From positions 1 through 55,862 of IMG/VR virus record IMGVR_UViG_3300045988_011856: 55,862 bases of DNA, one strand, 5' to 3'. Position 1 is the stretch's first letter. Every line of letters starts with the position of its first letter. The notes below the pieces were generated by a model, which was given only the letters and a program-made list of their open reading frames with translations, was not told the origin of the DNA and searched no databases. Below, piece after piece: positions 1 through 52,531 of this stretch. Both the position numbers and the translations under genes were made by a program. The stretch comes from a virus.

Positions 1-99
1 CTTTTTTTCTAAGACATTCCACAGCTTGGAAAAGTCAATATATCCGTTTGCACCATAATTCGCCATGCGTCACACCTCTTTTCTTTTTATATATGATAA
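1..99. repeat. Terminal direct repeat copy 1 (identical to 55764-55862); assembly overlap of a circular or circularly permuted genome
   Basis: First 99 nt and last 99 nt of the window are the same string. Positions 1-66 duplicate the 5' end of the minus-strand XRE gene 55608..55829. Confidence 0.95.
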
Positions 100-260
100 T
101 AGATTTTTCACACCATGTCAACGTCTATTCTCATGTATCATATTGCACAATAAACTGCTGTTTTGTGTCGTCTATTTTCGTGTATTGTGTCAATTGTATT
201 ATAATCTATTATCGTGTACTATTAGTATATCAAATGAAACACGAAAGCGAGGAAAACAAC

Positions 261-650
261 ATGACAAAATTTAAAATTGATAACAACAAAATTTATAGCA
301 CTTCTACACTTTGTGAAAAAACAGATATTTTTGAAATCGTGGAAAAAATCCCGGTTGGATTTTTCATATGGAATATCGGCGAAAACATGGGAACGCATGA
401 ATATATTCCAGTTTGCGAAGATTTACACCCGGAAGATAAAGAAAATTACGAGATCAACACGGCAACACTTAAAGCCGTAAAAGTTACACCGGACGAATGG
501 AAAAAACTTGATAAAGCGGCATCTTGGGGAGTTGGAAACCTTGAACAAGCAGAAAAAGCATTAAAAAGCAAGCGCAAAGGCTATACAGCAGACAGAAAAA
601 GAGCCGCGGCAGAACTCACAATTGAAATTTTCCGCAGAATTTGCGAATAG
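261..650 (+). CDS. hypothetical protein
   Basis: ORF 48..650 trimmed to ATG 261 (MTKFKIDNNK), which follows GAGGAA at 248-253. The upstream part of the ORF lies over a promoter-like AT-rich region. Confidence 0.6.
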   Translation: MTKFKIDNNKIYSTSTLCEKTDIFEIVEKIPVGFFIWNIGENMGTHEYIPVCEDLHPEDKENYEINTATLKAVKVTPDEWKKLDKAASWGVGNLEQAEKALKSKRKGYTADRKRAAAELTIEIFRRICE

Positions 651-719
651 TCGAAACCGCCACCCGGCGGTCTGCAGGAACTGCCCCACCTGCACTGATG
701 AGACAGGGCAAAAGAAAGG

Positions 720-1007
720 ATGGTTGATTATATGACAAAAGCGGAACTACTGAAAGAATTTGACAGATTGGAAAAGGAAAAAGGAGTGCACATTGATGGA
801 ATTTATTACAATAGCAAGAAAAGCACCATAGAAAACGCTATAGAATGCCTAAAATGCCCGGATGAACTTTTAAACAAGTATTTAACCGTTGTAAGCCTCA
901 AATACCCAAATAGCGGGCGCGTGATTACTGAAAACGGAGATTTTAAGCGGCACAGCCACAACAGATTGTATGTATTTAATACGGCGCGCATGATTTTAGC
1001 AAATTAA
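720..1007 (+). CDS. hypothetical protein
   Basis: Intact ORF followed directly by a hairpin plus T-run. Start is ATG 720 or ATG 732. Confidence 0.6.
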   Translation: MVDYMTKAELLKEFDRLEKEKGVHIDGIYYNSKKSTIENAIECLKCPDELLNKYLTVVSLKYPNSGRVITENGDFKRHSHNRLYVFNTARMILAN

Positions 1008-1092: not shown

Positions 1093-1266
1093 ATGAAAAA
1101 AGAAAACAAAGAGATCTTGCGCACATACAGAAGATTGTTGCGCGAATTTGACAAATCAGAAACGTATACAGAGTGGATAAAAAGACGGTGCAAGGTTCTT
1201 GCAGAAGCTCCGCTTTGCGTATCTGCTAGAACATTTCACAAGCTTGTAAAAAGCATATGCTTATAG
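1093..1266 (+). CDS. hypothetical small protein (57 aa, MKKENKEILRTYRRLL...)
   Basis: ATG 9 nt after GGAGG (1079-1083). Below the length cutoff of the ORF track. Followed by a terminator. Confidence 0.5.
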   Translation: MKKENKEILRTYRRLLREFDKSETYTEWIKRRCKVLAEAPLCVSARTFHKLVKSICL

Positions 1267-1289
1267 GGCGGTACCATTCCGCCCTTTTT
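1266..1289 (+). terminator. Rho-independent terminator
   Basis: GGGCGG-7 nt-CCGCCC followed by TTTTT. Confidence 0.7.
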
Positions 1290-1396
1290 CGCGTGTTGGC
1301 TTTGTTGCAGGCAATAGCACATTGACAAGTATATATGCGGTTGTGCGCGATTATTTAGCCTTATGCAGCCACAAATACGCGTAGGCATGGCATAGC

Positions 1397-1425
1397 TTGA
1401 CAAGCGCAACAAATGCGCATACAAT
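1397..1425 (+). promoter_or_regulatory. Near-consensus sigma-A-type promoter
   Basis: TTGACA (1397-1402), 17-nt spacer, TACAAT (1420-1425). Followed by a GC-rich leader of about 150 nt before ATG 1582. Confidence 0.55.
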
Positions 1426-1581
1426 GGAATATAAGCATATTCTAACGGCACAAGTACGCCCACGCATGGCGCGATCGTTCCAAGGCTTTGCAGGATCAGC
1501 CGGAAGCGGTTCGATCTGTGCACGCTCGCGGTCAACCATCTATAGTTGTATGAATTTTCACGCAATTCTGCCTGCTACAAG

Positions 1582-1758
1582 ATGTATGATTCGGTTGACA
1601 GTCTTAAGGATGTGTTGAGTGAGAGACTGTATAACGACATTAGCGATAAGATAAGGGATGGCATTTGCGACGTTCAAGAAGCAGCTTTTATTGCAGGATT
1701 CGCGTGTTGCGCAAAGTTTCTTACAAATGGCAAAACAGACTTGTTACCAAACGAGTAA
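1582..1758 (+). CDS. hypothetical small protein
   Basis: ORF 1546..1758 (TTG) trimmed to ATG 1582. No clear RBS. Followed by a strong terminator. Confidence 0.45.
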   Translation: MYDSVDSLKDVLSERLYNDISDKIRDGICDVQEAAFIAGFACCAKFLTNGKTDLLPNE

Positions 1759-1766
1759 TATATTTA

Positions 1767-1800
1767 TCCGGCGGCGATTCAAACCGCCGGATTTATTTTT
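1767..1800 (+). terminator. Rho-independent terminator (bidirectional shape)
   Basis: TCCGGCGG-9 nt-CCGCCGGA followed by a T-rich run. Confidence 0.7.
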
Positions 1801-1948
1801 GTTGTAGCGCAACGATGTTTTCTTTTGTAAAGTTTATTGACCGCGCCACATAATCACTTTTCCCCAACTCTTCTATCAGCTTCTCTCTCGTCATTTCCGG
1901 ATTTGTCCGGCGCACATACTGCAAGAGTTCTGTAATTTTATCCATCAT
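1793..1948 (-). CDS. hypothetical small protein (51 aa, MMDKITELLQYVRR...)
   Basis: GGAGG upstream. ATGA overlap with the stop of the 1945..2262 gene. Below the track cutoff. Confidence 0.5.
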   Translation of the reverse strand: MMDKITELLQYVRRTNPEMTREKLIEELGKSDYVARSINFTKENIVALQQK

Positions 1949-2262
1949 GCAACCTCCATAATTTTTAGCAATAATCTGTCTGCGATTTTAAACACTTCTC
2001 TTCCGTATGTAGCCAAGAAGTCTGCTACGATTTCCTCGGTGCCAATATCCATGTATACATTATACGAAAGACAGAACGCATGACATAATTCGTGACATAG
2101 CACTTTGTCTAAAAATCCACCGAGCAGATCATCCGCGATATAGATTGTTTGCGTGTTCCGGTCTGTCATACCTACAGTCCTGCTACCATCGCTACGCATT
2201 AGCATAGGGTTCTGACGCGATATTTTGACTATTTCCCACGTTTTATTATTAATCTTGAACAT
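1945..2262 (-). CDS. putative zinc metallopeptidase (HExxH)
   Basis: Contains the HELCH motif. Start trimmed to MFKINNK after GAGGTG. Confidence 0.55.
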   Translation of the reverse strand: MFKINNKTWEIVKISRQNPMLMRSDGSRTVGMTDRNTQTIYIADDLLGGFLDKVLCHELCHAFCLSYNVYMDIGTEEIVADFLATYGREVFKIADRLLLKIMEVA

Positions 2263-2273
2263 CTTTATCACCT

Positions 2274-2299
2274 CAAAAAGAAAGGGGCGAAATCGCCCC
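2274..2299 (-). terminator. Rho-independent terminator
   Basis: On the minus strand: GGGGCGA-TT-TCGCCCC followed by TTTCTTTTT. Confidence 0.75.
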
Positions 2300-2304
2300 A
2301 ATTC

Positions 2305-2985
2305 TTACATTTTAGTTACCAACGCGGTCAGTTTACGTTTTGTCAAATCTTTCTCTTCTGGTGACATTCCTGCGATCAGTTCCGTCACATCCTCGGAAAG
2401 AGACTTCATGTACTTTTCGAGTTCCTTCATTTTGGCATCCTTGTCCGCAGTAGAATCGCCATGATGCATCTCCTTGGTCTCAATATAACTTCTTCTGTTT
2501 ACTCCGGCGCGTCCTTCTCTCACATCGTGCATATCAGCTTTCATTCCATCATCATGCATTGGCTCGGTAAAGAACATTCTACCAAGCATAGCGCGGTCAA
2601 GGTCTCTCATGCGTTCAGCTTCTGGCATGGATTCCCACTCTCGGTAATCTTCCGGCATCTGGTGATAATATGGAGGTTCTACATATCCTCTGCGTGTTCC
2701 GCGCCCTTTCGGTGCAAATCTGCCGTTTGCATAGCGGTAATGGTCGTAATATCTTCTGTCCGGATAATCTTCGTACTGTTCAAGCATACGCATAATATCC
2801 TCATTATCTTCAGACTTTTTCATGGCTTCAACAATGTTATAGTCCTTGTCAAAGCATACGATGTTCTTTGCAATTTCCGTCCAATCCTTGAGATCATCAA
2901 GGTTTTGTCCCTCAAAATTCTCGATTCCAATGCCGTCAACGTGGGCTTTCACGCAATCCATAATCTGTTTCGCAAACTTATGCAT
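2305..2985 (-). CDS. hypothetical protein, charged and Tyr/Arg/Asp-rich
   Basis: Intact ORF in an operon with its neighbours. Confidence 0.65.
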   Translation of the reverse strand: MHKFAKQIMDCVKAHVDGIGIENFEGQNLDDLKDWTEIAKNIVCFDKDYNIVEAMKKSEDNEDIMRMLEQYEDYPDRRYYDHYRYANGRFAPKGRGTRRGYVEPPYYHQMPEDYREWESMPEAERMRDLDRAMLGRMFFTEPMHDDGMKADMHDVREGRAGVNRRSYIETKEMHHGDSTADKDAKMKELEKYMKSLSEDVTELIAGMSPEEKDLTKRKLTALVTKM

Positions 2986-17496: not shown

Positions 17497-18051
17497 TTAA
17501 TTTCCAAACAAATCCTCCAGCCTGTTCCTGACCTTTCCCTTGACATATTCTTCTTTATTGGCAACTTGCATTATATTTCTTTGACAAACTCCGGTAAAAT
17601 CGCTGGCAATCTGCGCGTTTGCATATTCTGCAATAAAATGACCGTCCAGATCATATTGTTGAATATGTCTCGGTCTTTCAAACATATTATAATTTCTTAA
17701 CCGATCGACAATTTGAGGGTGTTCAATTTCTGTTTTTGCTCTATGTGCTTTCGGGTGCAGTATTTGTAAGTTGGTAACAATATTGTTTTGCTTATTTCCA
17801 TCGATATGGTCAACGTGATACCCTTTTGGTATTTCGCCTATAAAATGTTCTGCTACCAGCACGTGGATTCTTGTACACCTTCTCAGTTTTACAGCTTTGT
17901 TTGTTAATACAACCGATAAATATCCTCCCTTTTGGTTTGTGTTCGAGAGAATATACCCATCTTTGTACTTTTTGTAACTTTTCAGTCTTCCAAAATTTGA
18001 AATTTGATATACACCCTCAAACCCATTTACCCATTTCCATTCTTCATTCAA
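17497..18051 (-). CDS. HNH homing endonuclease (NUMOD4 plus HNH_3 type)
   Basis: [21 protein letters not shown] (NUMOD4). [18 protein letters not shown] (HNH). Confidence 0.85.
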
Positions 18052-34082: not shown

Positions 34083-34111
34083 AATATACCACAAGCAGAG
34101 GAGTTTGTCAC
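34083..34111 (-). promoter_or_regulatory. Promoter of the moron
   Basis: The minus strand reads GTGACA-17 nt-TATATT with TGG just upstream of the -10. The -35 overlaps the tape measure stop codon. Confidence 0.5.
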
Positions 34112-36471
34112 TATACCGGATATGGTGCGGTGCCGGTCTTATTAAAGAACTCTTGCGCACTCTTTCTCGTGCTATCAAAGATAACTTTGCCATCAAGTAC
34201 AATCTGAATAGGCTGACCGCCGTTGCCGTTGCTTCTAATATATGAACGCAATACGCGTTCCGTAGCTTGCGCCACTCCATTTGCAACAGATGAAACAATC
34301 TGATCGTTATTCATAACCGCCGTATGACCGCCAAGGTTTCCAACAAGTTCCGGTCCCGCTTCTCTTGCGATAAACATTTGACCGAAATTTGGTGCTCCGC
34401 CTGCGGCATACTTCTTAATGCTATGCCATGAACCGCCGTAGAATACGCCACCATCGGCTTTCTTTTCGGCTTTTGTCCCAACATCAACGGATTTTCCGGT
34501 AAAAAACCTTGTTACGGAAGACCACAGATTGCTCAAAGCGTTTTTTGCAAAACTTAACCCGATAGTCACCGTTCTAGTTACACTATTCCATGAAGTCTTG
34601 AATTCGCTCCACAATTCACTAACCTTAGTTCCCCTCTTCATTAAGAAAGAAACCGTTTTCTTTTCTCCCCATGACTTCTTGAAGTCTCCCCACAATTCGC
34701 TTATCTTTGATGCGATCTTTAATAAGAATTGTGCCGTTCTAGTTTCTCCCCACGACTTCTTGAACTTATCCCACAGGTCTTTAGCCTTTGAGCCGATTTT
34801 CAGCAAGAATTGTGCGGTCTTTGTCTCTCCCCAAGACTTCTTGAATTTTTCCCATAAATCAGAAGCCTTAGGAGCAATTTTTGTCTTAAACTCCGCCGTT
34901 TTGTCCTTTACATTCTTCCATTCTTTTGTGAAATCTTTCCACAAATCAGAAGCTTTATTCTTGATCTTTGCTACGATTTCAAGTGCATTGTCTTTTTTCT
35001 TCTTCCAATACTTCTTAACTCCGTCCCACCAATCAGAAATACTTTGAAACGTTTCTCTATAAGATGGTAATTCAACTCCTGCGAATGGAATATAAACATG
35101 GCTATCGCCATTTTTTACATCTTTCCACCACTCAGAAAAAGCTGGTCCCCATGTGTCGTTCCACCAATCGGAAAAGCCTTGCTTCCAATCATCTAAGGAA
35201 TATGAAAATAAATCGCTGAATTTAAAGTCAACGCGGTACTTTTTCATTTCTTCCGGTTGCGTAGCATCGGCTATCTTATTTCCAATTGCTTTTCCAAGTG
35301 ACAATCCTGCCTCTGCCGTAATAACAATCGCTCCTACAGTCAACGCAAGCTTTCCGATTTTTCCAGAAATAGTTCCAAGCCCTTTTAGCTTTTTTGACAG
35401 TGCATCGGATAGCACACTTCCAATCGTTGAATTTGCTGCGATTTCAACACCTAATTTAGATGCTATCGCCGAAGCAATCTTTTTAGAAATAGCAGTTCCA
35501 ATTGCGCCAAGAGCTGCTTTTGCTAAATGCAGTCCTAAAATTTTCTTAATAGTCAGTGCACCGACAATAATTGCAACCGTCTTTATATCTAAGTTACTTA
35601 AAAACTCCTTTGCTCCGTTCCAAACATCCTTCCAAGAAATTTTACTTAACGCTGTCGTAACTGCATCAAATGCGCCTTGCGCCCATGTATTAAGTGTTTG
35701 AGCAAACAGAGCGAAATCAAAGTTCTTGAAAAACTTATTGACTCCATCAGCAATAGAATTTCCAAATTGTTTCCAATCAAACGTTGTGCCGAATGAATCC
35801 AATCCGTGAAGCACTGTGTTTAATGAATTAGCTATTAACTTTCCGGTCTCTCCGAATAATGTTGTGCCTTTCTGACCTTCAAACAATCCATTAAGAAACT
35901 TTGCAAGTCCGCTACCAAAGCCGGAAGCTTTGGCGTACACCTTATCCCACTTGATTTCTTTCATTGCGTTTATCAACGCACCGGATATTGACTTTCCAAG
36001 CCCTTCAAGGTCTTTGATCTTGCTTTTATAATCCTTAAAAATAGTGTCAGCCGCTACGAGTTTTCCGCTTGAACCGCTTGCACCACCGCCTCCGGATGAA
36101 CCACTACCGCTACCGGACGAACCTTTATCTTTATTTGAACTGATTACTTTTAATTCATCAAATGCTCTGGTTGATTTCTTTGCTTCTTTTGCGGCTTTCT
36201 TTGTACCGTTTGCCGCGTTATTTGCCTCGTCCGCTACATTTCCATAGCTATCAGCTAAATCGTCCGTAATGCCTACGTCACTTGCTTCATACTTCCATCC
36301 GAATATTGAGCCGAGCGCGTCTGTTACCATCGTTGCAAACTGAATTACCTTTTGTAGAACCGCATTTAAAGTCTTTACAAGCGGTTTGAAAGCATTGATC
36401 AGAGCCCCACCAACAATGCCGGATAACTGTTGGAATGATTGCTTGAGGATTGTTACTTGGTTATGCCATGT
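34111..36471 (-). CDS. tail tape measure protein, exon 3
   Basis: Begins TWHNQVTILKQSFQQLSGIVGG, the ANQxRxL segment of TP901-type tape measure proteins. The frame opens immediately after a TAA. Confidence 0.85.
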   Translation of the reverse strand, partial: TWHNQVTILKQSFQQLSGIVGGALINAFKPLVKTLNAVLQKVIQFATMVTDALGSIFGWKYEASDVGITDDLADSYGNVADEANNAANGTKKAAKEAKKSTRAFDELKVISSNKDKGSSGSGSGSSGGGGASGSSGKLVAADTIFKDYKSKIKDLEGLGKSISGALINAMKEIKWDKVYAKASGFGSGLAKFLNGLFEGQKGTTLFGETGKLIANSLNTVLHGLDSFGTTFDWKQFGNSIADGVNKFFKNFDFALFAQTLNTWAQGAFDAVTTALSKISWKDVWNGAKEFLSNLDIKTVAIIVGALTIKKILGLHLAKAALGAIGTAISKKIASAIASKLGVEIAANSTIGSVLSDALSKKLKGLGTISGKIGKLALTVGAIVITAEAGLSLGKAIGNKIADATQPEEMKKYRVDFKFSDLFSYSLDDWKQGFSDWWNDTWGPAFSEWWKDVKNGDSHVYIPFAGVELPSYRETFQSISDWWDGVKKYWKKKKDNALEIVAKIKNKASDLWKDFTKEWKNVKDKTAEFKTKIAPKASDLWEKFKKSWGETKTAQFLLKIGSKAKDLWDKFKKSWGETRTAQFLLKIASKISELWGDFKKSWGEKKTVSFLMKRGTKVSELWSEFKTSWNSVTRTVTIGLSFAKNALSNLWSSVTRFFTGKSVDVGTKAEKKADGGVFYGGSWHSIKKYAAGGAPNFGQMFIAREAGPELVGNLGGHTAVMNNDQIVSSVANGVAQATERVLRSYIRSNGNGGQPIQIVLDGKVIFDSTRKSAQEFFNKTGTAPYPV

Positions 36472-36782
36472 CAATTATGTTATCGTAAAGGCTTTTTATC
36501 CTCTACTTCTTATGGTTTCCCATAAGTTCGGCGTACATTTTCAACCACAGTGTTGTGGTTGTCGGATACTCTTGGGGATGTTATATTCTATACTCTTTCC
36601 ATAAGAAAAGAGCATAGGTTCAATCCCTACGCTCTACAATGTGCTATAACTTTTATTTTATAGCCTTATCTCGGTATTAGCTTATTGACTTACCAAAAAT
36701 CAACTTAGCTTTCACCGATTTTACCCGATTTTTCATCGACATATTACTATGCCGCGCGACACATGAAACAAAAGTTTCGTTT
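36472..36782 (-). ncRNA. Group I-like intron 2 in the tape measure gene (311 nt, no ORF)
   Basis: Follows exon U (GAU) and ends in G. Guide sequence CAUGU-GUCG pairs with the exon 3 start ACAUG and the exon 2 end CGAU. Several 7-bp hairpins, one with a GAAA loop. Confidence 0.75.
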
Positions 36783-36955
36783 ATCGGCTGTTCTGGCAAA
36801 GTCCCCCTGTGCCGCAGCCGTGTTAGCCATAACATATTGGTATCTAAGCATGGCTTTTTCGGCTTGCGTCATTGTCTTAAAATTAGCTTCTATGCCTTGC
36901 GTAAGTGCCCATTCCTTAAGTGTTGCTTGGGTTAAATCTAAACCGTAAGTCCTTA
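36783..36955 (-). CDS. tail tape measure protein, exon 2 (173 nt)
   Basis: Encodes (L)RTYGLDLTQATLKEWALTQGIEANFKTMTQAEKAMLRYQYVMANTAAAQGDFARTAD, the missing conserved core between exons 1 and 3. Confidence 0.8.
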
Positions 36956-37228
36956 CATTTATACCCTCGGTTTCCCGATATTTATTAGGGGATTAGACTA
37001 TCTCACAACCTCGTAAAAGGTCTCCGATACTTCGAGTGGTGCTAATCTCCACCCTACGGCTTTCGCCTAGTCGTTACACCTTCCTATTCTCATAGGCTCG
37101 GCTCGGTATTGCCCTCGTCTTTACGTTAGGGTTTTTACCGATAGCAAGAGAATCATTCTCTCACACCGCTTTTGCTTGCGTTCTTCGGATTATTCGTAAT
37201 GCATTTCTGCATTAAGCCGCTAATGTCA
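36956..37228 (-). ncRNA. Group I-like intron 1 in the tape measure gene (273 nt, no ORF)
   Basis: 5' splice site after U with P1 CCGU/GCGG. Terminal G. P2 TAATGCA-GAAA-TGCATTA. Four GAAA tetraloops. P7-like GACTA/TAGTC inside R/S-like elements. Confidence 0.75.
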
Positions 37229-38222
37229 ACGGTCTGGTCTGTCCGGTAAAGATTGATTCCAAGTCCTCCGCTACGTCTGATTGTGCCACATCATAGAATG
37301 ATGCCATGTCTGCGGTCAGCTTCGTGAGTTGTACAGACATATCTGCCATCTTGCCTTGCGGAAATCCCATAGCAACGCCCATTGCTTGAAATCGGCTTGC
37401 AAACTGTTTTACAGATAACTCGGACATACCGAATTTCTGAATTGAATCCGCGGCAAATTCATTTACAAGCGATTCATACTTTCCAAAGGTTGTACGAACT
37501 ACGTTCTCAACCTCTGTCAGACTTGAAGATATGTCGATTGCATCCCTTATTTTTCCAAATCCTCGGAACAATAGGAAATATGATGCATACACTTTTCCTA
37601 TTGCTGACGCAAGAGAAAATGACTTCTTGGTTGCACTAGAAGCGCCGGAAGTAAAACCACTAAACGAACTTGTGATGCTTCTAGCCGCAGTTCCTGCCGC
37701 TCCTCCTGTTCTTGCTAGCTTCGCAAGTGCATTTGTCATGTTGATAAGATTTTGACTTACCATAGGTGCTTTTGACAATTCTGCCATAAGCTGACGCATC
37801 GCAACCGCAAGTTTTGGTATGTTCTCGATAGCCTTTGTTGAGCTTGTATAACCAAGCTGTTTGATTCCTCCAGCTAATTCCGACAAGCCTTGCACCGATT
37901 TTGACATGTCAGAAAATGAGCTTACAGACTTTGAAATCTGTCGCATTGATCCGGCTGCTGCATTTATCTTTCCTGTGTCAATGTTGCTAAGCGTTTTAAT
38001 GTTTCTTGCAAGAGTCGAGAATGACCTTGAATCAACACTCCGCATGGCACTCATTGAGTTTGACAATCGGTTTACTCCGGTTGATAACCGGTTAATTCCG
38101 CTAGAATCTATGCTTTGCAAGGATGATGATAATTTTCCAAGCCTTGTTATCAGCGCATCAATCTGTCCGTTAGCTTGCCTTGCCTGTGCTTGAATTTTGA
38201 CCTCTAAGGTTTCTAATTCCAA
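37229..38222 (-). CDS. tail tape measure protein, exon 1 (TTG start)
   Basis: GGAGGTG RBS. Ends ...DVAEDLESIFTGQTRP(L). If left unspliced it runs into TAA 4 codons later. Confidence 0.85.
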
Positions 38223-38287: not shown

Positions 38288-38977
38288 TTACTTTTTCAGT
38301 TTTCCCTTTTTCAGAAGAGAAAGCATCTTTGAATTTTCCTCTGACGTAAACTTAAAATTGGAAAATCCGTTCTTTTTTGCGATTTCCGCACGATGTTCTT
38401 TCGACGCATCATCTTCCCCAACCGCTTTTAATGCTTCTACGATTGAGTTTGAGTTTCCCTTATACTTCGGATAATACTTTTCTTTGCTTTTCTTTGCTCC
38501 GCTTACAACAATCACTGTATGACCTTTTGTGCGCGTCACAAGAATATCTCCGTTGCGAAGAATAAACCCGGCATGATAAGAACCCATATCATCAAACAGA
38601 CCGGATTTCAGAATTACCGGTCGTTCATTAGATGTATTAAAATCTCCCACATCCTTACCGGATGCATAGATAATACAGGCACGTACAAGAGAAGAACAAT
38701 CGCATTCCGTCTTGACTTTTGTGTTAATGCCATGTTTAATAACTCCGTAGCGTTCCGATTGGTCATAGCCGATATTTTTGTTGTCACACGCAATCTTCAT
38801 AGCTTCAGCTAACTTCTCCGCAACCTTATTATCCTTTGCTCTTAACACATTCCATCCCTTAGAATGGTTATAAAACTTCTGCGTAGACACTTCTTGTCCG
38901 GTCTGATCTCCAGCTTTTCCACCAGAATAGCAATTTCCGTGTTCATCATGCCGCGCACTTCCGATAATTACTGCCAT
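38288..38977 (-). CDS. NlpC/P60-type peptidoglycan hydrolase (candidate endolysin or tail lysin)
   Basis: Catalytic-looking Cys (ECDCSSLV) and His (KGHTVIVV). C-terminal repeat-like binding tail (NGFSNFKFTSEENSKMLSLLKKGKL). Confidence 0.6.
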   Translation of the reverse strand: MAVIIGSARHDEHGNCYSGGKAGDQTGQEVSTQKFYNHSKGWNVLRAKDNKVAEKLAEAMKIACDNKNIGYDQSERYGVIKHGINTKVKTECDCSSLVRACIIYASGKDVGDFNTSNERPVILKSGLFDDMGSYHAGFILRNGDILVTRTKGHTVIVVSGAKKSKEKYYPKYKGNSNSIVEALKAVGEDDASKEHRAEIAKKNGFSNFKFTSEENSKMLSLLKKGKLKK

Positions 38978-49194: not shown

Positions 49195-49288
49195 AAAAGC
49201 ACCTCCGCAAAAGCAGAAGTGCCTTAAGACCTCTGCCAATAATTTTTGTTGGGTAGCGACTAACTCCGTTTGTTAGCCGGTAATATAT

Positions 49289-49447
49289 TTATTCGCATTC
49301 TAAAAGTCTGTCTTCTACAAATTGTTCTAATACGCTAAAGCCTTTTGGCTTTTCAATTCCTTTTCTTGCAAGTTCTGCAACTATTGTTTCCATTTCTTCT
49401 TTTACTCCTTGATAAGCAATTTTCATTCCGGATTTCATTTCGTCCAT
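49289..49447 (-). CDS. possible small protein (52 aa)
   Basis: GGAAAGGAAAA upstream. Below the track cutoff. Confidence 0.4.
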   Translation of the reverse strand: MDEMKSGMKIAYQGVKEEMETIVAELARKGIEKPKGFSVLEQFVEDRLLECE

Positions 49448-49476
49448 TTGTTTTCCTTTCCGCTGATAATCAGCAA

Positions 49477-49668
49477 CTAAACATTTACTAATTTATCTAC
49501 ATACCTTGTCATTTCAATTGTTGTTCCGTTTTCATCTTTTGTACTAACACAAACATGCTTGTCATCATGGCTTATCATATCTGTAAGTCTAATTTCTGTT
49601 TCATCATCTTTAAAATTGTAGCATTTTCGCATTTCTTCAATGCAATTATTCATTTCTGTTATTTTCAT
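49477..49668 (-). CDS. hypothetical small protein
   Basis: Intact ORF. Confidence 0.55.
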   Translation of the reverse strand: MKITEMNNCIEEMRKCYNFKDDETEIRLTDMISHDDKHVCVSTKDENGTTIEMTRYVDKLVNV

Positions 49669-49679
49669 AATCTTGCCCC

Positions 49680-49928
49680 CTAAATTCTTGCAACTACGTG
49701 TTCTTTTTCAAAATCTTTTTTGCCTTCATCGTAGATAGCTGAACCATTTTTATCAGTTTTCAGTTTATCAAATTCACAAGCAACCTTTATGCCATCCTTG
49801 TTACTGCATTCTGCGCGATAGTCAATAACACATACTTTCTTCTGCCATTTTCCATTGGCATAAATCTTTGTGTAACCGCCTTTTCTAGTTTTGATTATAA
49901 TTTTTGAACGTGTTTTCTTCATTTCCAA
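49680..49928 (-). CDS. hypothetical small protein
   Basis: Intact ORF. Confidence 0.55.
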   Translation of the reverse strand: MEMKKTRSKIIIKTRKGGYTKIYANGKWQKKVCVIDYRAECSNKDGIKVACEFDKLKTDKNGSAIYDEGKKDFEKEHVVARI

Positions 49929-50134
49929 TGCACCCTGAACCCTTTCTCCTCATATGCTTTCACGGCTTTATTTAGGCTATCAGAGTCTTCATATTTCTCA
50001 TACAATAAAATTATCGCATCATCCTTTTCGATCGCGTATATGTTGCAATCCGCAAGTCTCTTGGCTGATTCTAAAACCGCTTTTGATTGCCACCGTGTCA
50101 TTTCGTAGATGCGACTGCCGATATTAACAATCAT
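49919..50134 (-). CDS. hypothetical small protein
   Basis: Intact ORF that overlaps its neighbours. Confidence 0.55.
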   Translation of the reverse strand: MIVNIGSRIYEMTRWQSKAVLESAKRLADCNIYAIEKDDAIILLYEKYEDSDSLNKAVKAYEEKGFRVHWK

Positions 50135-50349
50135 TCTTCCACCAACTTTCTACCGCAGATAGGGCAATAGGCTATTTTCATTACCATTTCAACATTCATA
50201 TCTTTACTGCTACACACCGCAAAGGGTGGACATTTATTCAAGTCGCATGTAATTACAGGTTTATTTGACAACTTATCAATCTTAAATTTTCCATAATGTG
50301 TTATGATAGGAAATTTTTCCTCGCAAAATTCACACATATTACACCTCAA
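50131..50349 (-). CDS. zinc-ribbon small protein
   Basis: CNMCEFC...CPICG. Confidence 0.55.
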   Translation of the reverse strand: MRCNMCEFCEEKFPIITHYGKFKIDKLSNKPVITCDLNKCPPFAVCSSKDMNVEMVMKIAYCPICGRKLVEE

Positions 50350-50596
50350 TCAAAGTAAATTTTCTTATTTCTCTCGGAATCTCACGATGCAAAATGCCAT
50401 TTGTATCATAATATGGTTCGCATAATAGATGATTATGTTCTACATTTCCTAGATACACTTTGCTTGTTCTTCCGCCAATCGTGATTTCTCCGAAGAACAT
50501 TTCCCCTATTTCAGCCTTGAATCCGCTTACATCATATGGAGTTTTGCAATAAGGACACACCTTTTTATCAGTTTCAATTGGTGCGCCGCAATTCAC
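50339..50596 (-). CDS. zinc-ribbon small protein
   Basis: MNCGAPI...CPYCKTPY. Confidence 0.55.
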   Translation of the reverse strand: MNCGAPIETDKKVCPYCKTPYDVSGFKAEIGEMFFGEITIGGRTSKVYLGNVEHNHLLCEPYYDTNGILHREIPREIRKFTLIEV

Positions 50597-50735
50597 TCAG
50601 CTTGTCATAATTCACACCCCAATCATAGCAAAAAATCGGAATCCTCGTGAGATTCCGTGTCTTTTGTGTGATATAAATATTCCACAATGTTTTTATCATA
50701 CTTACACACCATTTTGCGTAAATATCAACCTCGAA

Positions 50736-50839
50736 TAGCGACACAGGGAATCGAACCCTGTCAGATCAAACCATGCCAACCGCTTTCAAATCTGCAATTT
50801 CTAATCACGGAAGGGTTTTCTGTTTCCAATAATACCGCT
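50736..50839 (-). ncRNA. aberrant tRNA-like element (104 nt; acceptor stem and T-arm only are canonical)
   Basis: T-arm CAGGG-TTCGATT-CCCTG. 7-bp acceptor pairing AGCGGTA/TGTCGCT (2 G.U). No canonical D or anticodon arm could be folded by hand. Confidence 0.35.
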
Positions 50840-50908
50840 ACCATCCATAAGTCTCCCATCGACCGGAACTATTGCAGTAGCACCCGACTAAGCGGAGATA
50901 AAGATAAA

Positions 50909-50991
50909 CGCAGATACAAGGACTCGAACCTTGACAGCATTTCTGCTGGATAGCTTAGCAAGCTACTGGAATACCATTATCCCATATCTGC
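50909..50991 (-). tRNA. tRNA-Ser (anticodon GCU), type II with long variable arm
   Basis: Acceptor GCAGATA/TATCTGC. Anticodon stem GTAGC/GCTAT with loop TTGCTAA. Variable arm CAGCA-GAAA-TGCTG. T-arm CAAGG-TTCGAGT-CCTTG. Confidence 0.85.
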
Positions 50992-51077
50992 AAATAATTT
51001 ATTGGCAGGACTTAGCAGCGCATTTTCTGTACCGCCCATTTAATCAAGCCTTGTCGCCTACTTGAACCAATAATTAG

Positions 51078-51149
51078 CTGGGATAGTGGGGATCGAACCC
51101 ACGGCATTCTGATTAACAGTCAGACGTTCTACCTCTGAACTATATCCCA
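51078..51149 (-). tRNA. tRNA-Asn (anticodon GUU)
   Basis: Full 72-nt cloverleaf. Anticodon arm TCTGA-CTGTTAA-TCAGA. T-arm GTGGG-TTCGATC-CCCAC. Confidence 0.9.
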
Positions 51150-51438
51150 ATAACCGCCGTTAAGCGGTTAGCAATATGTTTTACGTGCTATGCATTGCAC
51201 TATCTCGGGCACCGTGGGATAGATGCCCGAATCATAGTTGACTGCTATATGGATTGCACGTCTGCAAATTACGGAACGAATACCGCTCAACACCATATAG
51301 TCTTACATCAAAGACCTACCGGACGGTCTCGCACCGTCCTTAACAGAATCGTCCTAGTAGGCGGAGGACTCCGGATAGCATAAAAAGTAATGCCTACACA
51401 GAGTCAGAAACGTCCGTATGCAAACGATAACAGACGAA

Positions 51439-51510
51439 CTGGGTTAGCCGGACTCGAACCGGCAAATGCAGGAATCAAAATCCTGTGCCTTACCACTTGG
51501 CAATAGCCCA
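51439..51510 (-). tRNA. tRNA-Gln (anticodon UUG)
   Basis: 72 nt. Anticodon arm CAGGA-TTTTGAT-TCCTG. T-arm GCCGG-TTCGAGT-CCGGC. U1-A72. One C.A mismatch in the acceptor stem. Confidence 0.8.
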
Positions 51511-51754
51511 ATGTTTTTTCGTCCGCGAACATGATTCAAGCGCCAACGCCCAACTGCCAAGAATCATTGTCCGCGGACTTAAGCTATACCGGATGCTCTG
51601 ATTTCTCGCTCTGGTGCTCGGCGTCACTATCCAGATTGAGTAAATCTCCGGTGCTGTCCGGTTCCTTTGATTTTGTTATATGTATTCTTTCGACCACACT
51701 CAAAAATTGCGGCAGAAAGCAAATACCAAATATCGGATCATAAATTACCATGTA

Positions 51755-51913
51755 TTAACTCCACATCAAAAGTATGTTAGAACCAATCAGCAGGGAAAGA
51801 GAAATAAAACCAACTGTTTGCGCTTTGTTTTCTCGTTCTGTTATCGCAAAACTTAAAAGTAATGCGATCAGCAAAAAATCGAGCGTTGATATAATTGTTT
51901 TGATAATATCCAT
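51755..51913 (-). CDS. possible small membrane protein (52 aa)
   Basis: GGAGGTG upstream. Two hydrophobic segments. Confidence 0.45.
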   Translation of the reverse strand: MDIIKTIISTLDFLLIALLLSFAITERENKAQTVGFISLSLLIGSNILLMWS

Positions 51914-51943
51914 CTTTTACACCTCCGGCATATAATAAGCAAC

Positions 51944-52123
51944 CTATATAACGTTCTTTTCAATCATCTCTCTAAGCACTTCTTGTGCGCGTTCATGCGA
52001 CTCGTATTTTCCAATCTCAACGTCTCTTCCGTCAATGTGAAGATATATGTATTCTCCCCTTTGTGCAATAACGTGTGAATCGAAATCGAAAACAAAATCT
52101 CTTTTCTGCGAAACTACTGTCAT
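51944..52123 (-). CDS. possible small protein (59 aa)
   Basis: ATGA overlap with the upstream lipoprotein gene. Confidence 0.45.
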   Translation of the reverse strand: MTVVSQKRDFVFDFDSHVIAQRGEYIYLHIDGRDVEIGKYESHERAQEVLREMIEKNVI

Positions 52124-52359
52124 TCTGTATCTCCCACATAAACTCTTAATGTTCCATCAGCATTGTACAGTGGAGTAATCCCTCCATCGTAACGCGCTTG
52201 ATAATACATGACACCAGTATCCGGATCGACAATCACTCCACCACCATCCATATTTGTTTTATCCACCATAGATTCCGTTTTGTTATCAGCCGACCCGCAT
52301 CCAGCAATTCCAAGTGCAAGTGCTGCGCAAAGAAAAATCGCTAATACTTTCATCTTCAT
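52120..52359 (-). CDS. lipoprotein
   Basis: Signal peptide with lipobox LGIAGC. Trimmed to MKMKVLAIF after GGGAGGG. Confidence 0.7.
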   Translation of the reverse strand: MKMKVLAIFLCAALALGIAGCGSADNKTESMVDKTNMDGGGVIVDPDTGVMYYQARYDGGITPLYNADGTLRVYVGDTE

Positions 52360-52529
52360 TTCTTTCCCTCCCATTCATCGCATACATGGTTGAATTCTAC
52401 GAAGTCTGCAGTATAGTCACTTGAATCATTCACGCATACATAACCTTGCATCTTGTCGTATGTAGCATATTTGCAAGTGCCACAACAATCATTCTTCGGT
52501 TGTCTGCAATATCGTTCGTCATAACGCAT
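52356..52529 (-). CDS. possible small Cys-rich protein (57 aa)
   Basis: ATGA overlap with the lipoprotein start. Confidence 0.45.
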   Translation of the reverse strand: MRYDERYCRQPKNDCCGTCKYATYDKMQGYVCVNDSSDYTADFVEFNHVCDEWEGKK

Positions 52530-52531
52530 AT

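Follow-up and report, generated by a model that had tools for sequence, protein, structure and literature searches.

A 273-nucleotide (nt) element in a phage tape measure gene, at positions 36956 to 37228 of IMG/VR virus record IMGVR_UViG_3300045988_011856, is very probably a group I intron that is able to splice at precisely these boundaries. The whole record of 55,862 nt (hereafter the window) was analyzed and all coordinates refer to it; the gene is read on the minus strand, such that intron position p corresponds to window position 37229-p. What was observed directly comprises the boundaries of the insert and the junction of the exons, the relationship among family members, the secondary structure, and the variable presence of the intron among relatives. 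Exon 1 ends with ...CAG ACC AGA CCG U and exon 2 begins with UA AGG ACU UAC GGU UUA, while the element between them (intron 1) starts with UGACAUUAGCGG and ends with ...GGGUAUAAAUG. Joining the exons converts the unspliced sequence AGACCGTTGACATTAG into the junction AGACCGTTAAGGACTTAC, which keeps the frame as ...IFTGQTRP-L-RTYGLDLTQATLKEW and reads ...IFTGQTRPLRTYGLDLTQATLKEW... across exons 1 and 2. When intron 1 and a second intron located further downstream (intron 2) are both removed, a single open reading frame (ORF) of 1175 amino acids (aa) is obtained.

In unspliced RNA the frame leaving exon 1 is closed almost at once. The initial annotation had placed a TAA four codons further on; an early stop is indeed met, and the exact reading is L-T-L-A-A followed by UAA at intron nt 15-17. 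Unspliced exon 1 is called as a 336-aa ORF (37212..38222), and a database protein named "minor tail protein, virus sp. ctQ5V6" (P0042) is identical to the exon 1 product. Apart from this read-through, no sense-strand ORF of at least 20 aa was found inside intron 1. No Pfam match was obtained for the tape measure family of the window. The insertion point lies in the highly conserved motif FTGxTxPL^RxYG (carets mark insertion points), and the protein alignment identified this target as the most conserved stretch of the family, which is typical of homing elements.

Relatives were retrieved by searching with the spliced peptide, after which their DNA was aligned to the window. They comprised proteins identical to exon 1 that end with ...TGQTRPLTLAA and a stop (P0042 among them), proteins 88-98% identical that continue across the site (...TGQTRPLRTYGLDLTQATLKEW...) and then stop as ...ARTADKRNFCFMCRAA, a tail that represents read-through into intron 2, and more distant proteins uninterrupted at both intron sites (...GDFARTSDSWHNQ...). 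Contig L001, with flanks ~97% identical to the window, retains intron 2 but lacks exactly the 273 nt of intron 1, and is continuous across the site (...TGQTRPLRTYGLDL...). Its 402-aa product P0001 and the distant uninterrupted proteins read ...TGQTRPLRxYG[IL]DLTQATLK... across the junction, which is the junction that the initial annotation had predicted; the comparison with intron-less alleles suggested there thus returned an exact 273-nt gap. Both inserts are found in L002, with an intron 1 identical to the window copy. In L003, intron 1 differs by four substitutions, all in loops or junctions, and intron 2 is precisely absent, bearing out the claim that a second, separate intron lies 173 nt downstream of the first. 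Since all four presence/absence combinations of introns 1 and 2 occur among close relatives, the two are independent and precisely bounded elements. Homologous alleles from which intron 1 is precisely absent keep an intact reading frame, and the intron-bearing alleles are located in near-complete phage contigs of 38-55 kb from independent samples. Around the site, the intron-less L001 target (CAGACCAGACCTTTGCGTACTTACGG) and the spliced exons of the window (CAGACCAGACCGTTAAGGACTTACGG) show four synonymous differences within 12 nt (CCT TTG CGT ACT versus CCG T^TA AGG ACT).

A T is common to both ends of the insert, and its placement from DNA alone is therefore ambiguous by 1 nt. The splice sites could be moved by one base, with exon 1 ending ...CCGUU (37228) and the intron ending ...AAAUGU (36955), and the same messenger RNA would result; alleles with and without the insert do not tell these placements apart. 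Such a shift is nonetheless extremely improbable, as the intron would end in U instead of the universally required G, the cleaved U would be paired with A8 in place of the conserved U.G wobble, and a G directly precedes the exon 2 sequence in 10/10 complete homologues. Only the placement given in the initial annotation has both a U before the 5' splice site and a terminal G.

The core of intron 1 is closely related to known group I introns. End-to-end alignment of the Rfam model RF00028 in a focused search of 1.3 kb gave 24.3 bits (E=0.001). When intron 1 was compared with 50,697 phage records by sensitive blastn, 402 matched, with matches confined to two core blocks that correspond roughly to P4-P6 and P7-P9. 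These blocks are ~94% identical to introns of Staphylococcus phage Twort and K-like phages, and other matches came from Bacillus, Listeria, Enterococcus, and Lactobacillus phages. In the same search, P1, P2, P3, and an insert at nt 45-87 matched no isolated phage record. An exact-pattern scan of IMG/VR for the unique 5' part returned 0 matches, and when the surrounding 15 kb were searched by megablast, no isolated phage proved to be related, the intron cores alone being matched. All helices of the group I core fold (P3-P8, P4-P6, and P7 pseudoknotted with P3) were found, and P7 and J8/7 agree with the RF00028 consensus. Intron 1 is assigned to subgroup IA, type IA2, because it has P7.1 and P7.2 and resembles Twort; IA2 was preferred over IA1 for the Twort/K similarity and by the Michel-Westhof criteria.

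The secondary structure was written from the window sequence and evaluated on a MAFFT alignment (A3) of 11 homologues from the same tape measure site, after cutting the ~1.05 kb ORF region from those homologues, hereafter siblings, that carry one. A total of 58 pairs in 12 helices were counted; P5, P6a, and outer P9 were left out because the ORF cut-out and length variation make their columns unreliable. Standard pairs occupied 97.0% of cells, and 32/58 pairs had changed on both sides. The observed percentage of pairing, number of double-change pairs, and covariation score were reached in 0/500 column shuffles, and sliding the 3' partners by 1-3 columns lowered pairing to 33-43% of cells.

The helices named in the initial annotation are all present. 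P1, with its U.G pair, covaries with the exon (CCAU/GUGG in L055 and GCCU/GGGC in L026), and P10, in which U6-U7-A8 pair with the UAA of exon 2, covaries from UUA/UAA to UUUU/AAAA in L026; the terminal G is kept in all ten complete homologues. The in-frame stop UAA forms the first three bases of the proposed P2 hairpin, which is present as described. So is P7 (GACUA/UAGUC), assembled from the R-like and S-like elements, and the P9-like CCC...CGG-GAAA-CCG...GGG preceding the terminal G takes the form CCCU...CGG-GAAA-CCG-AGGG. The count of four GAAA tetraloops had to be corrected to three (intron nt 22, 165, and 255), the fourth GNRA loop being a GAGA in P6a. P4 is UCGGUA/UACCGA with 4/6 pairs compensatory, P5 is CCCU/AGGG, P6 is GCC/GGU, and P6a is CCUAU-GAGA-AUAGG. 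Compensatory pairs number 3/3 in P7.1 (nt 162-171) and 3/6 in P7.2 (nt 175-195). Beyond the initial annotation, we recognized P3, a two-hairpin insert between P3 and P4, and siblings that carry an endonuclease gene.

Coordinates of the tape measure exons, introns, and intron 1 structural elements in the window (complementary bases are separated by a slash)
Feature	Position	Strand	Remarks
Tape measure exon 1	37229..38222	-	TTG start, AAGGAGG upstream; 331 codons + 1 nt
Intron 1	36956..37228	-	273 nt, ORF-less, group I, presumably IA2 type; last base G
Exon 2	36783..36955	-	173 nt; joined directly to exon 1 in L001/P0001 and to exon 3 in L003
Intron 2	36472..36782	-	311 nt; after GAU, last base G
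Exon 3	34111..36471	-	Completes the spliced product
P1 and internal guide	37217..37232	-	Exon CCGU (37232..37229) / intron GCGG (nt 9-12); U(-1).G9 at splice site
P2 hairpin UAAUGCA-GAAA-UGCAUUA	37197..37214 (nt 15-32)	-	5/7 pairs changed on both sides
P3 5' strand UCCGA	37185..37189 (nt 40-44)	-	4/5 pairs compensatory; 100% of cells paired
Family-specific insert	37142..37184 (nt 45-87, 43 nt)	-	Hairpins P3.1 and P3.2; in minimum-free-energy fold
P4-P5-P6-P6a domain	37078..37141 (nt 88-151)	-	~94% identical to Staphylococcus phage introns
P7 5' strand GACUA (R-like)	37068..37072 (nt 157-161)	-	Aligns to RF00028 consensus GACUA; invariant in 11/11 homologues
P7.1 (GGC-GAAA-GCC) and P7.2 (GGGUGG...CCACUC), subgroup IA signature	37034..37067 (nt 162-195)	-	Covariation
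P3 3' strand UCGGA	37023..37027 (nt 202-206)	-	Covariation
P8 hairpin	37008..37021 (nt 208-221)	-	2/3 counted pairs compensatory
P7 3' strand UAGUC (S-like)	36996..37000 (nt 229-233)	-	J8/7 GUGAGA just before
P9 (CCCU/AGGG), P9a (CGG-GAAA-CCG), and omega-G 36956	36956..36990	-	2/3 P9a pairs compensatory

These data bear on whether the gene might simply be split or decayed, in which case the 273 nt would represent an insert or intron relic without catalytic activity, and tape measure function would either come from fragments translated separately or be gone. Gene callers do give separate ORFs of 336 and 787 aa, intron 1 scores under the Rfam gathering threshold, and exon 3 begins just after a TTG, but the 57 codons of exon 2 are in frame and conserved despite having neither a start codon nor a ribosome site of their own. 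Moreover, the 32 pairs kept through double substitutions require that selection act on the fold of the RNA, no variation is seen in the core junctions or in P7, and several large phage contigs of different sample origin retain the arrangement. We consider a split or decayed gene very improbable.

Intron 1 departs from its canonical relatives mainly between P3 and P4, which are separated by ~3 nt in the Rfam consensus and in those relatives versus 43 nt here. P3.1 (nt 49-62) is a CGC/GCG stem with a near-invariant A-rich loop and 2/3 pairs compensatory, whereas P3.2 (nt 65-85) has 9 bp with 6/8 counted pairs compensatory. The loops and linkers of the insert (GAAGAAC, GCAAAAG) are almost invariant across homologues. 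The Rfam alignment proposes a different P3, formed by nt 79-87 with 200-207, which was rejected: only 83% of its cells are paired, pair 80/206 is unpaired in 8/11 sequences, and the correspondingly constrained fold reaches -69.2 kcal/mol versus -81.8 kcal/mol with P3 at nt 40-44, ~12 kcal/mol worse. With P3 assigned to UCCGA/UCGGA rather than to this pairing, it follows that 43 nt lie between the P3 5' strand and P4. Because Rfam forces P3 onto nt 79-87, which is contradicted by covariation, the insert is a likely contributor to the low model score. The invariant U86-A87 could also pair with A201-U200, giving a P3 of 7 bp whose 5' strand is split by the insert; alternatively, these two nucleotides could form a short J3/4. 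A full-text literature search for P3.1/P3.2 hairpins in group I introns returned nothing relevant, which is weak evidence of novelty as it covered open-access text only. We also observed that an invariant GCUA(A) before P4 (37141..37145, nt 84-88) is complementary to an invariant UUAGC in the P7.2 loop (37041..37045, nt 184-188). This complementarity could represent a tertiary contact, although nt 84 and 85 also belong to the covarying P3.2 stem.

Introns homologous to intron 1 occupy the same motif, [FY][TS]GxTxPL^[RK]xYG, in L019, L020-L023, L024, L025, L049-L054, L055-L056, L057, and L058, with L024 and L025 being Lachnospiraceae metagenome-assembled genomes. In a Clostridia genome (L026; ...TGETESL^KNLGIVMTETNLKAF...), a further homologue occupies the corresponding site of a far more divergent tape measure protein, and an exon-1-type relative from pig gut (L016) has intron nt 1-87 in common with the window before diverging into an ORF. 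Sibling introns each encode, in the P5 region, a protein of roughly 330-345 aa (343-aa ORF), the last codons of which pass through P5', J5/4, P4', and P6 into P6a; the ORF comes with its own ribosome site and a promoter-like sequence of the extended -10 type. This protein matched PHROG 314 ("homing endonuclease") with E=4e-12, and NUMOD1 and I-HmuI-NUMOD-like domains were found in 24/24 members of its family. The Pfam GIY-YIG model did not match it; by eye we take its N-terminus (YVYVW...FYVGKG) to be GIY-YIG-like, which makes the catalytic class a presumption unconfirmed by Pfam. A PDB sequence search with the sibling endonuclease gave chance matches only, and a scan of IMG/VR gave no confirmed match. 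Since siblings at the same site carry an endonuclease gene, the window copy, which has no ORF and thus encodes no homing endonuclease, represents an endonuclease-less form.

Outside P4-P5, the L019 intron is nearly identical to that of the window, while its P4 is ACGAUG/CAUCGU versus UCGGUA/UACCGA in the window. The 32-mer spanning P5 to P4' of the window is found unchanged in IMG/VR contigs, within unrelated introns that lack an ORF and interrupt another gene at a ...YGG^...G.GK[ST] site; these introns served as canonical comparators only. The different P4 of L019 and the occurrence of the 32-mer in ORF-less introns together indicate that the window copy is not a clean deletion of the L019 form. 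Either the P4-P5 module may have been exchanged, or an endonuclease cassette may have invaded an ORF-less ancestor with later drift of P4. The family occupies this one tape measure site in phages and prophages of Lachnospiraceae/Clostridia, most members having an endonuclease gene that presumably spreads the intron into intron-less alleles. The compact P4-P5 module of the window copy, in turn, matches that of many other ORF-less phage introns. Lacking an endonuclease gene, the window copy may now travel with the phage or be mobilized in trans. A free-standing, homing-endonuclease-like HNH_3/NUMOD4 gene (17497..18051, minus strand; E about 1e-12) was observed in the replication module of the window; the C-terminal part of its product shows weak similarity to the NUMOD region of the sibling endonuclease, with the DNA-binding module alone in common.

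Several points weigh against reading intron 1 as a functional intron. Its 24.3 bits fall short of the RF00028 gathering score of 50, and neither intron was detected when Rfam was run at gathering thresholds or on the whole window at E of 0.05 or less. P6 and P7 are invariant in the family, which makes covariation uninformative for both helices. The 43-nt insert departs from the canonical J3/4 of ~3 nt and in principle could impair folding or make a protein cofactor necessary. As for mobility, that of the endonuclease-less window copy itself is hypothetical, and the only endonuclease gene found in the window lies 19 kb away and has a catalytic domain unrelated to that of the sibling enzyme. Finally, catalysis, splicing in vivo, and endonuclease-driven homing are predicted from sequence.

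A dependence on a protein cofactor deserves particular attention, since some group I introns require protein helpers. Owing to the insert or to loss of the endonuclease gene, intron 1 might need a host protein, a maturase-like activity of a sibling endonuclease, or another phage protein. The insert takes the place of the short J3/4 strand that normally packs against P6, and its loops are near-invariant where its stems change, which would fit a binding site or a tertiary contact. However, the insert is present in endonuclease-carrying and endonuclease-less forms alike and is thus no remnant of endonuclease loss; IA2 introns from Twort, T4, and the like, which are closely related, self-splice in vitro, and no specific cofactor is indicated by the sequence. 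Cofactor dependence thus seems unlikely to us, although less so than a split gene.

Following the established group I pathway, splicing of intron 1 would proceed as follows. The late transcript would fold so that the CCGU of exon 1 and the guide GCGG form P1 with the U.G pair at the cleavage site, and a free guanosine bound in P7 would cleave after U37229. The guide UUA would then hold the UAA of exon 2 as P10, while terminal G36956 enters the G site in place of the cofactor. Ligation would yield ...CCG UUA AGG..., encoding Pro-Leu-Arg, and removal of intron 2 as well would restore the tape measure ORF of 1175 aa. A ribosome on unspliced RNA would stop at the UAA where P2 starts, before the catalytic core, which may serve to keep ribosomes out of the core.

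A more far-reaching reading, which we put forward tentatively as possible rather than probable, is that the family represents an undescribed structural variant of IA2 introns. In this variant, a two-hairpin module of 41-43 nt would replace J3/4, following or splitting the P3 5' strand, and would be specific to one tape measure target site, while the endonuclease-less copy would possibly be chimeric through a P4-P5 swap. Because its stems covary and its loops are nearly invariant, the module would have a function of its own; for example, it might brace the tertiary fold, bind a protein, or stand in for the J3/4 triple helix. If true, the P4-P5 swap would be direct evidence of modular recombination between ribozymes.

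Group I introns have been described in tape measure genes before. In prophages of the Bacillus cereus group, TMP-IVS1, IVS2, and IVS3a/b occupy three sites of this gene, with two introns per gene in some prophages, IA1/IA2 types, endonuclease-less copies, and a patchy distribution (Tourasse & Kolsto, NAR 2008; PMC2504315). In these introns, a stop codon is met in P1/P2, no later than nt 27, and P1/P10 are adapted to the target site (PMC2504315). The stop-codon placement and conserved target of intron 1 agree with them, and both groups comprise small introns that sit in frame in conserved tape measure stretches at several sites and are variably present. By description, the window is set apart by its association with gut Lachnospiraceae/Clostridia phages, a different tape measure family and motif, and the P3-P4 insert. 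Geobacillus virus E3 (L006, KP144388) provides another case, as a group I intron at 625..926, absent from the annotation of the record, divides its tape measure gene into gp42 and gp43, annotated as the N- and C-terminal halves. This intron scores 48.7 bits on RF00028 and shares 71% identity with intron 1 over 126 nt of its core, but it lies in another tape measure family and at another site (...ALNEVD^NNFAVSTQDLA...) and shows no P3-P4 insert in the Rfam alignment. Among cluster J mycobacteriophages, which are siphoviruses, group I introns occur in late capsid and tail genes of some genomes only and are spliced during late expression (PMC3706429). The likeness is one of description, as these are high-GC actinobacteriophages in which the tail introns interrupt minor tail genes and not the tape measure gene.

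At the level of the ribozyme itself, Twort offers a close comparison. P7.1/P7.2 are present in both introns, and the ~94% identity covers P4-P6 and the P7-P9 core; the Twort match is inside its three-piece terminase gene, beside an intron-encoded endonuclease, which makes Twort another phage with multiple introns in a single gene. The structure of the Twort ribozyme has been solved by crystallography (PDB 1Y0Q). Twort/K-like introns differ from intron 1 in host gene (terminase, orf142, and others), and in these canonical relatives P3 is followed by ~3 nt and then P4. In Staphylococcus phage 110, a canonical relative reaches 106 bits on RF00028, and two introns are annotated only 88 nt apart in a structural gene of this phage. 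Two small introns 173 nt apart, which the initial annotation had deemed unusual, thus have precedents both there and in the multiple introns published in 2008 (PMC2504315). The general picture of phage group I introns is unchanged; what is new is the host clade, the tape measure family, the full allele set, the pair of endonuclease-plus and endonuclease-minus forms, and the P3-P4 insert. The td intron of T4 is of IA2 type with the I-TevI ORF looped out of the ribozyme, and its ORF-less derivatives reportedly still splice. In td the ORF lies in P6a, whereas the sibling ORF lies in the P5 region and runs into P4'-P6-P6a; the sibling protein has NUMOD DNA-binding modules, as in the I-TevI/I-HmuI class.

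Recognition of the two introns turns public "minor tail protein" fragments into one tape measure protein of 1175 aa, and the same annotation correction holds for dozens of related gut-phage contigs. The covarying insert is also a concrete case of a generic Rfam model mis-pairing and under-scoring a real intron, and similar introns are probably being missed in viromes. Furthermore, the locus is a natural experiment in gain and loss of two unrelated introns among near-identical phages, and lends itself to work on homing, on immunity of the target site, and on loss of the endonuclease in Lachnospiraceae phages that are uncultivated.

Intron 2 scored 35.5 bits on RF00028 (E=4e-7, 1.3-kb search), also below the gathering score of 50, and its Rfam alignment ends 37 nt short of the real 3' end. 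Its junction, ARTAD^TWHNQ, is matched by uninterrupted homologues. We rejected the idea that intron 1 is a duplicate of intron 2, as their global alignment scored 1.0 versus -3.4 +/- 4.6 for shuffled sequences. An ORF-containing intron was observed in a different type of tape measure gene in L027 (Clostridia metagenome-assembled genome JAZURE010000019, about 1250..2700). Its 3' tail (AAGTAGAGGATAAAAAGCCTTTACGATAAC...) is almost identical to that of intron 2, and its ORF product is related to the intron-1-family endonuclease with 33% identity, such that intron 2 also seems to have endonuclease-bearing relatives. Other tape measure fragments (P0057, P0098, P0102, P0080, P0011, and P0105) end in stops after ...ARTAGRLCAA, ...KTSGRLCAA, ...INMLNRWLKH, or ...AATDKLLVA. 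These end points suggest that further intron types occupy site 2 or its vicinity, and perhaps that the same conserved stretch of ~100 aa contains more insertion sites. P0104 (...LKECNGRFYG and a stop) was dismissed as a third intron site, as its contig runs on into unrelated genes, and P0097 was left aside for its adapter-like end.

In other respects the window resembles a siphovirus genome and encodes a terminase, a portal of the SPP1 type, and capsid E. The gene immediately upstream of the tape measure gene (38288..38977, minus strand) has an endolysin-like domain (ELLD, E=1.5e-36) and occupies the position usual for tail assembly chaperones, a placement kept in L001-L003 and L018. Three transfer RNA genes, one with a long variable arm, lie at 50909..51510 on the minus strand, within a 3.3-kb stretch (49240..52531) that has no ORF of at least 90 aa. 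Finally, a match to the type II hammerhead ribozyme (RF02276; 37.4 bits, gathering score 37, E=5e-4) was detected on the plus strand at 649..712, in the 69-nt gap between the ORFs at 48..650 and 720..1007.

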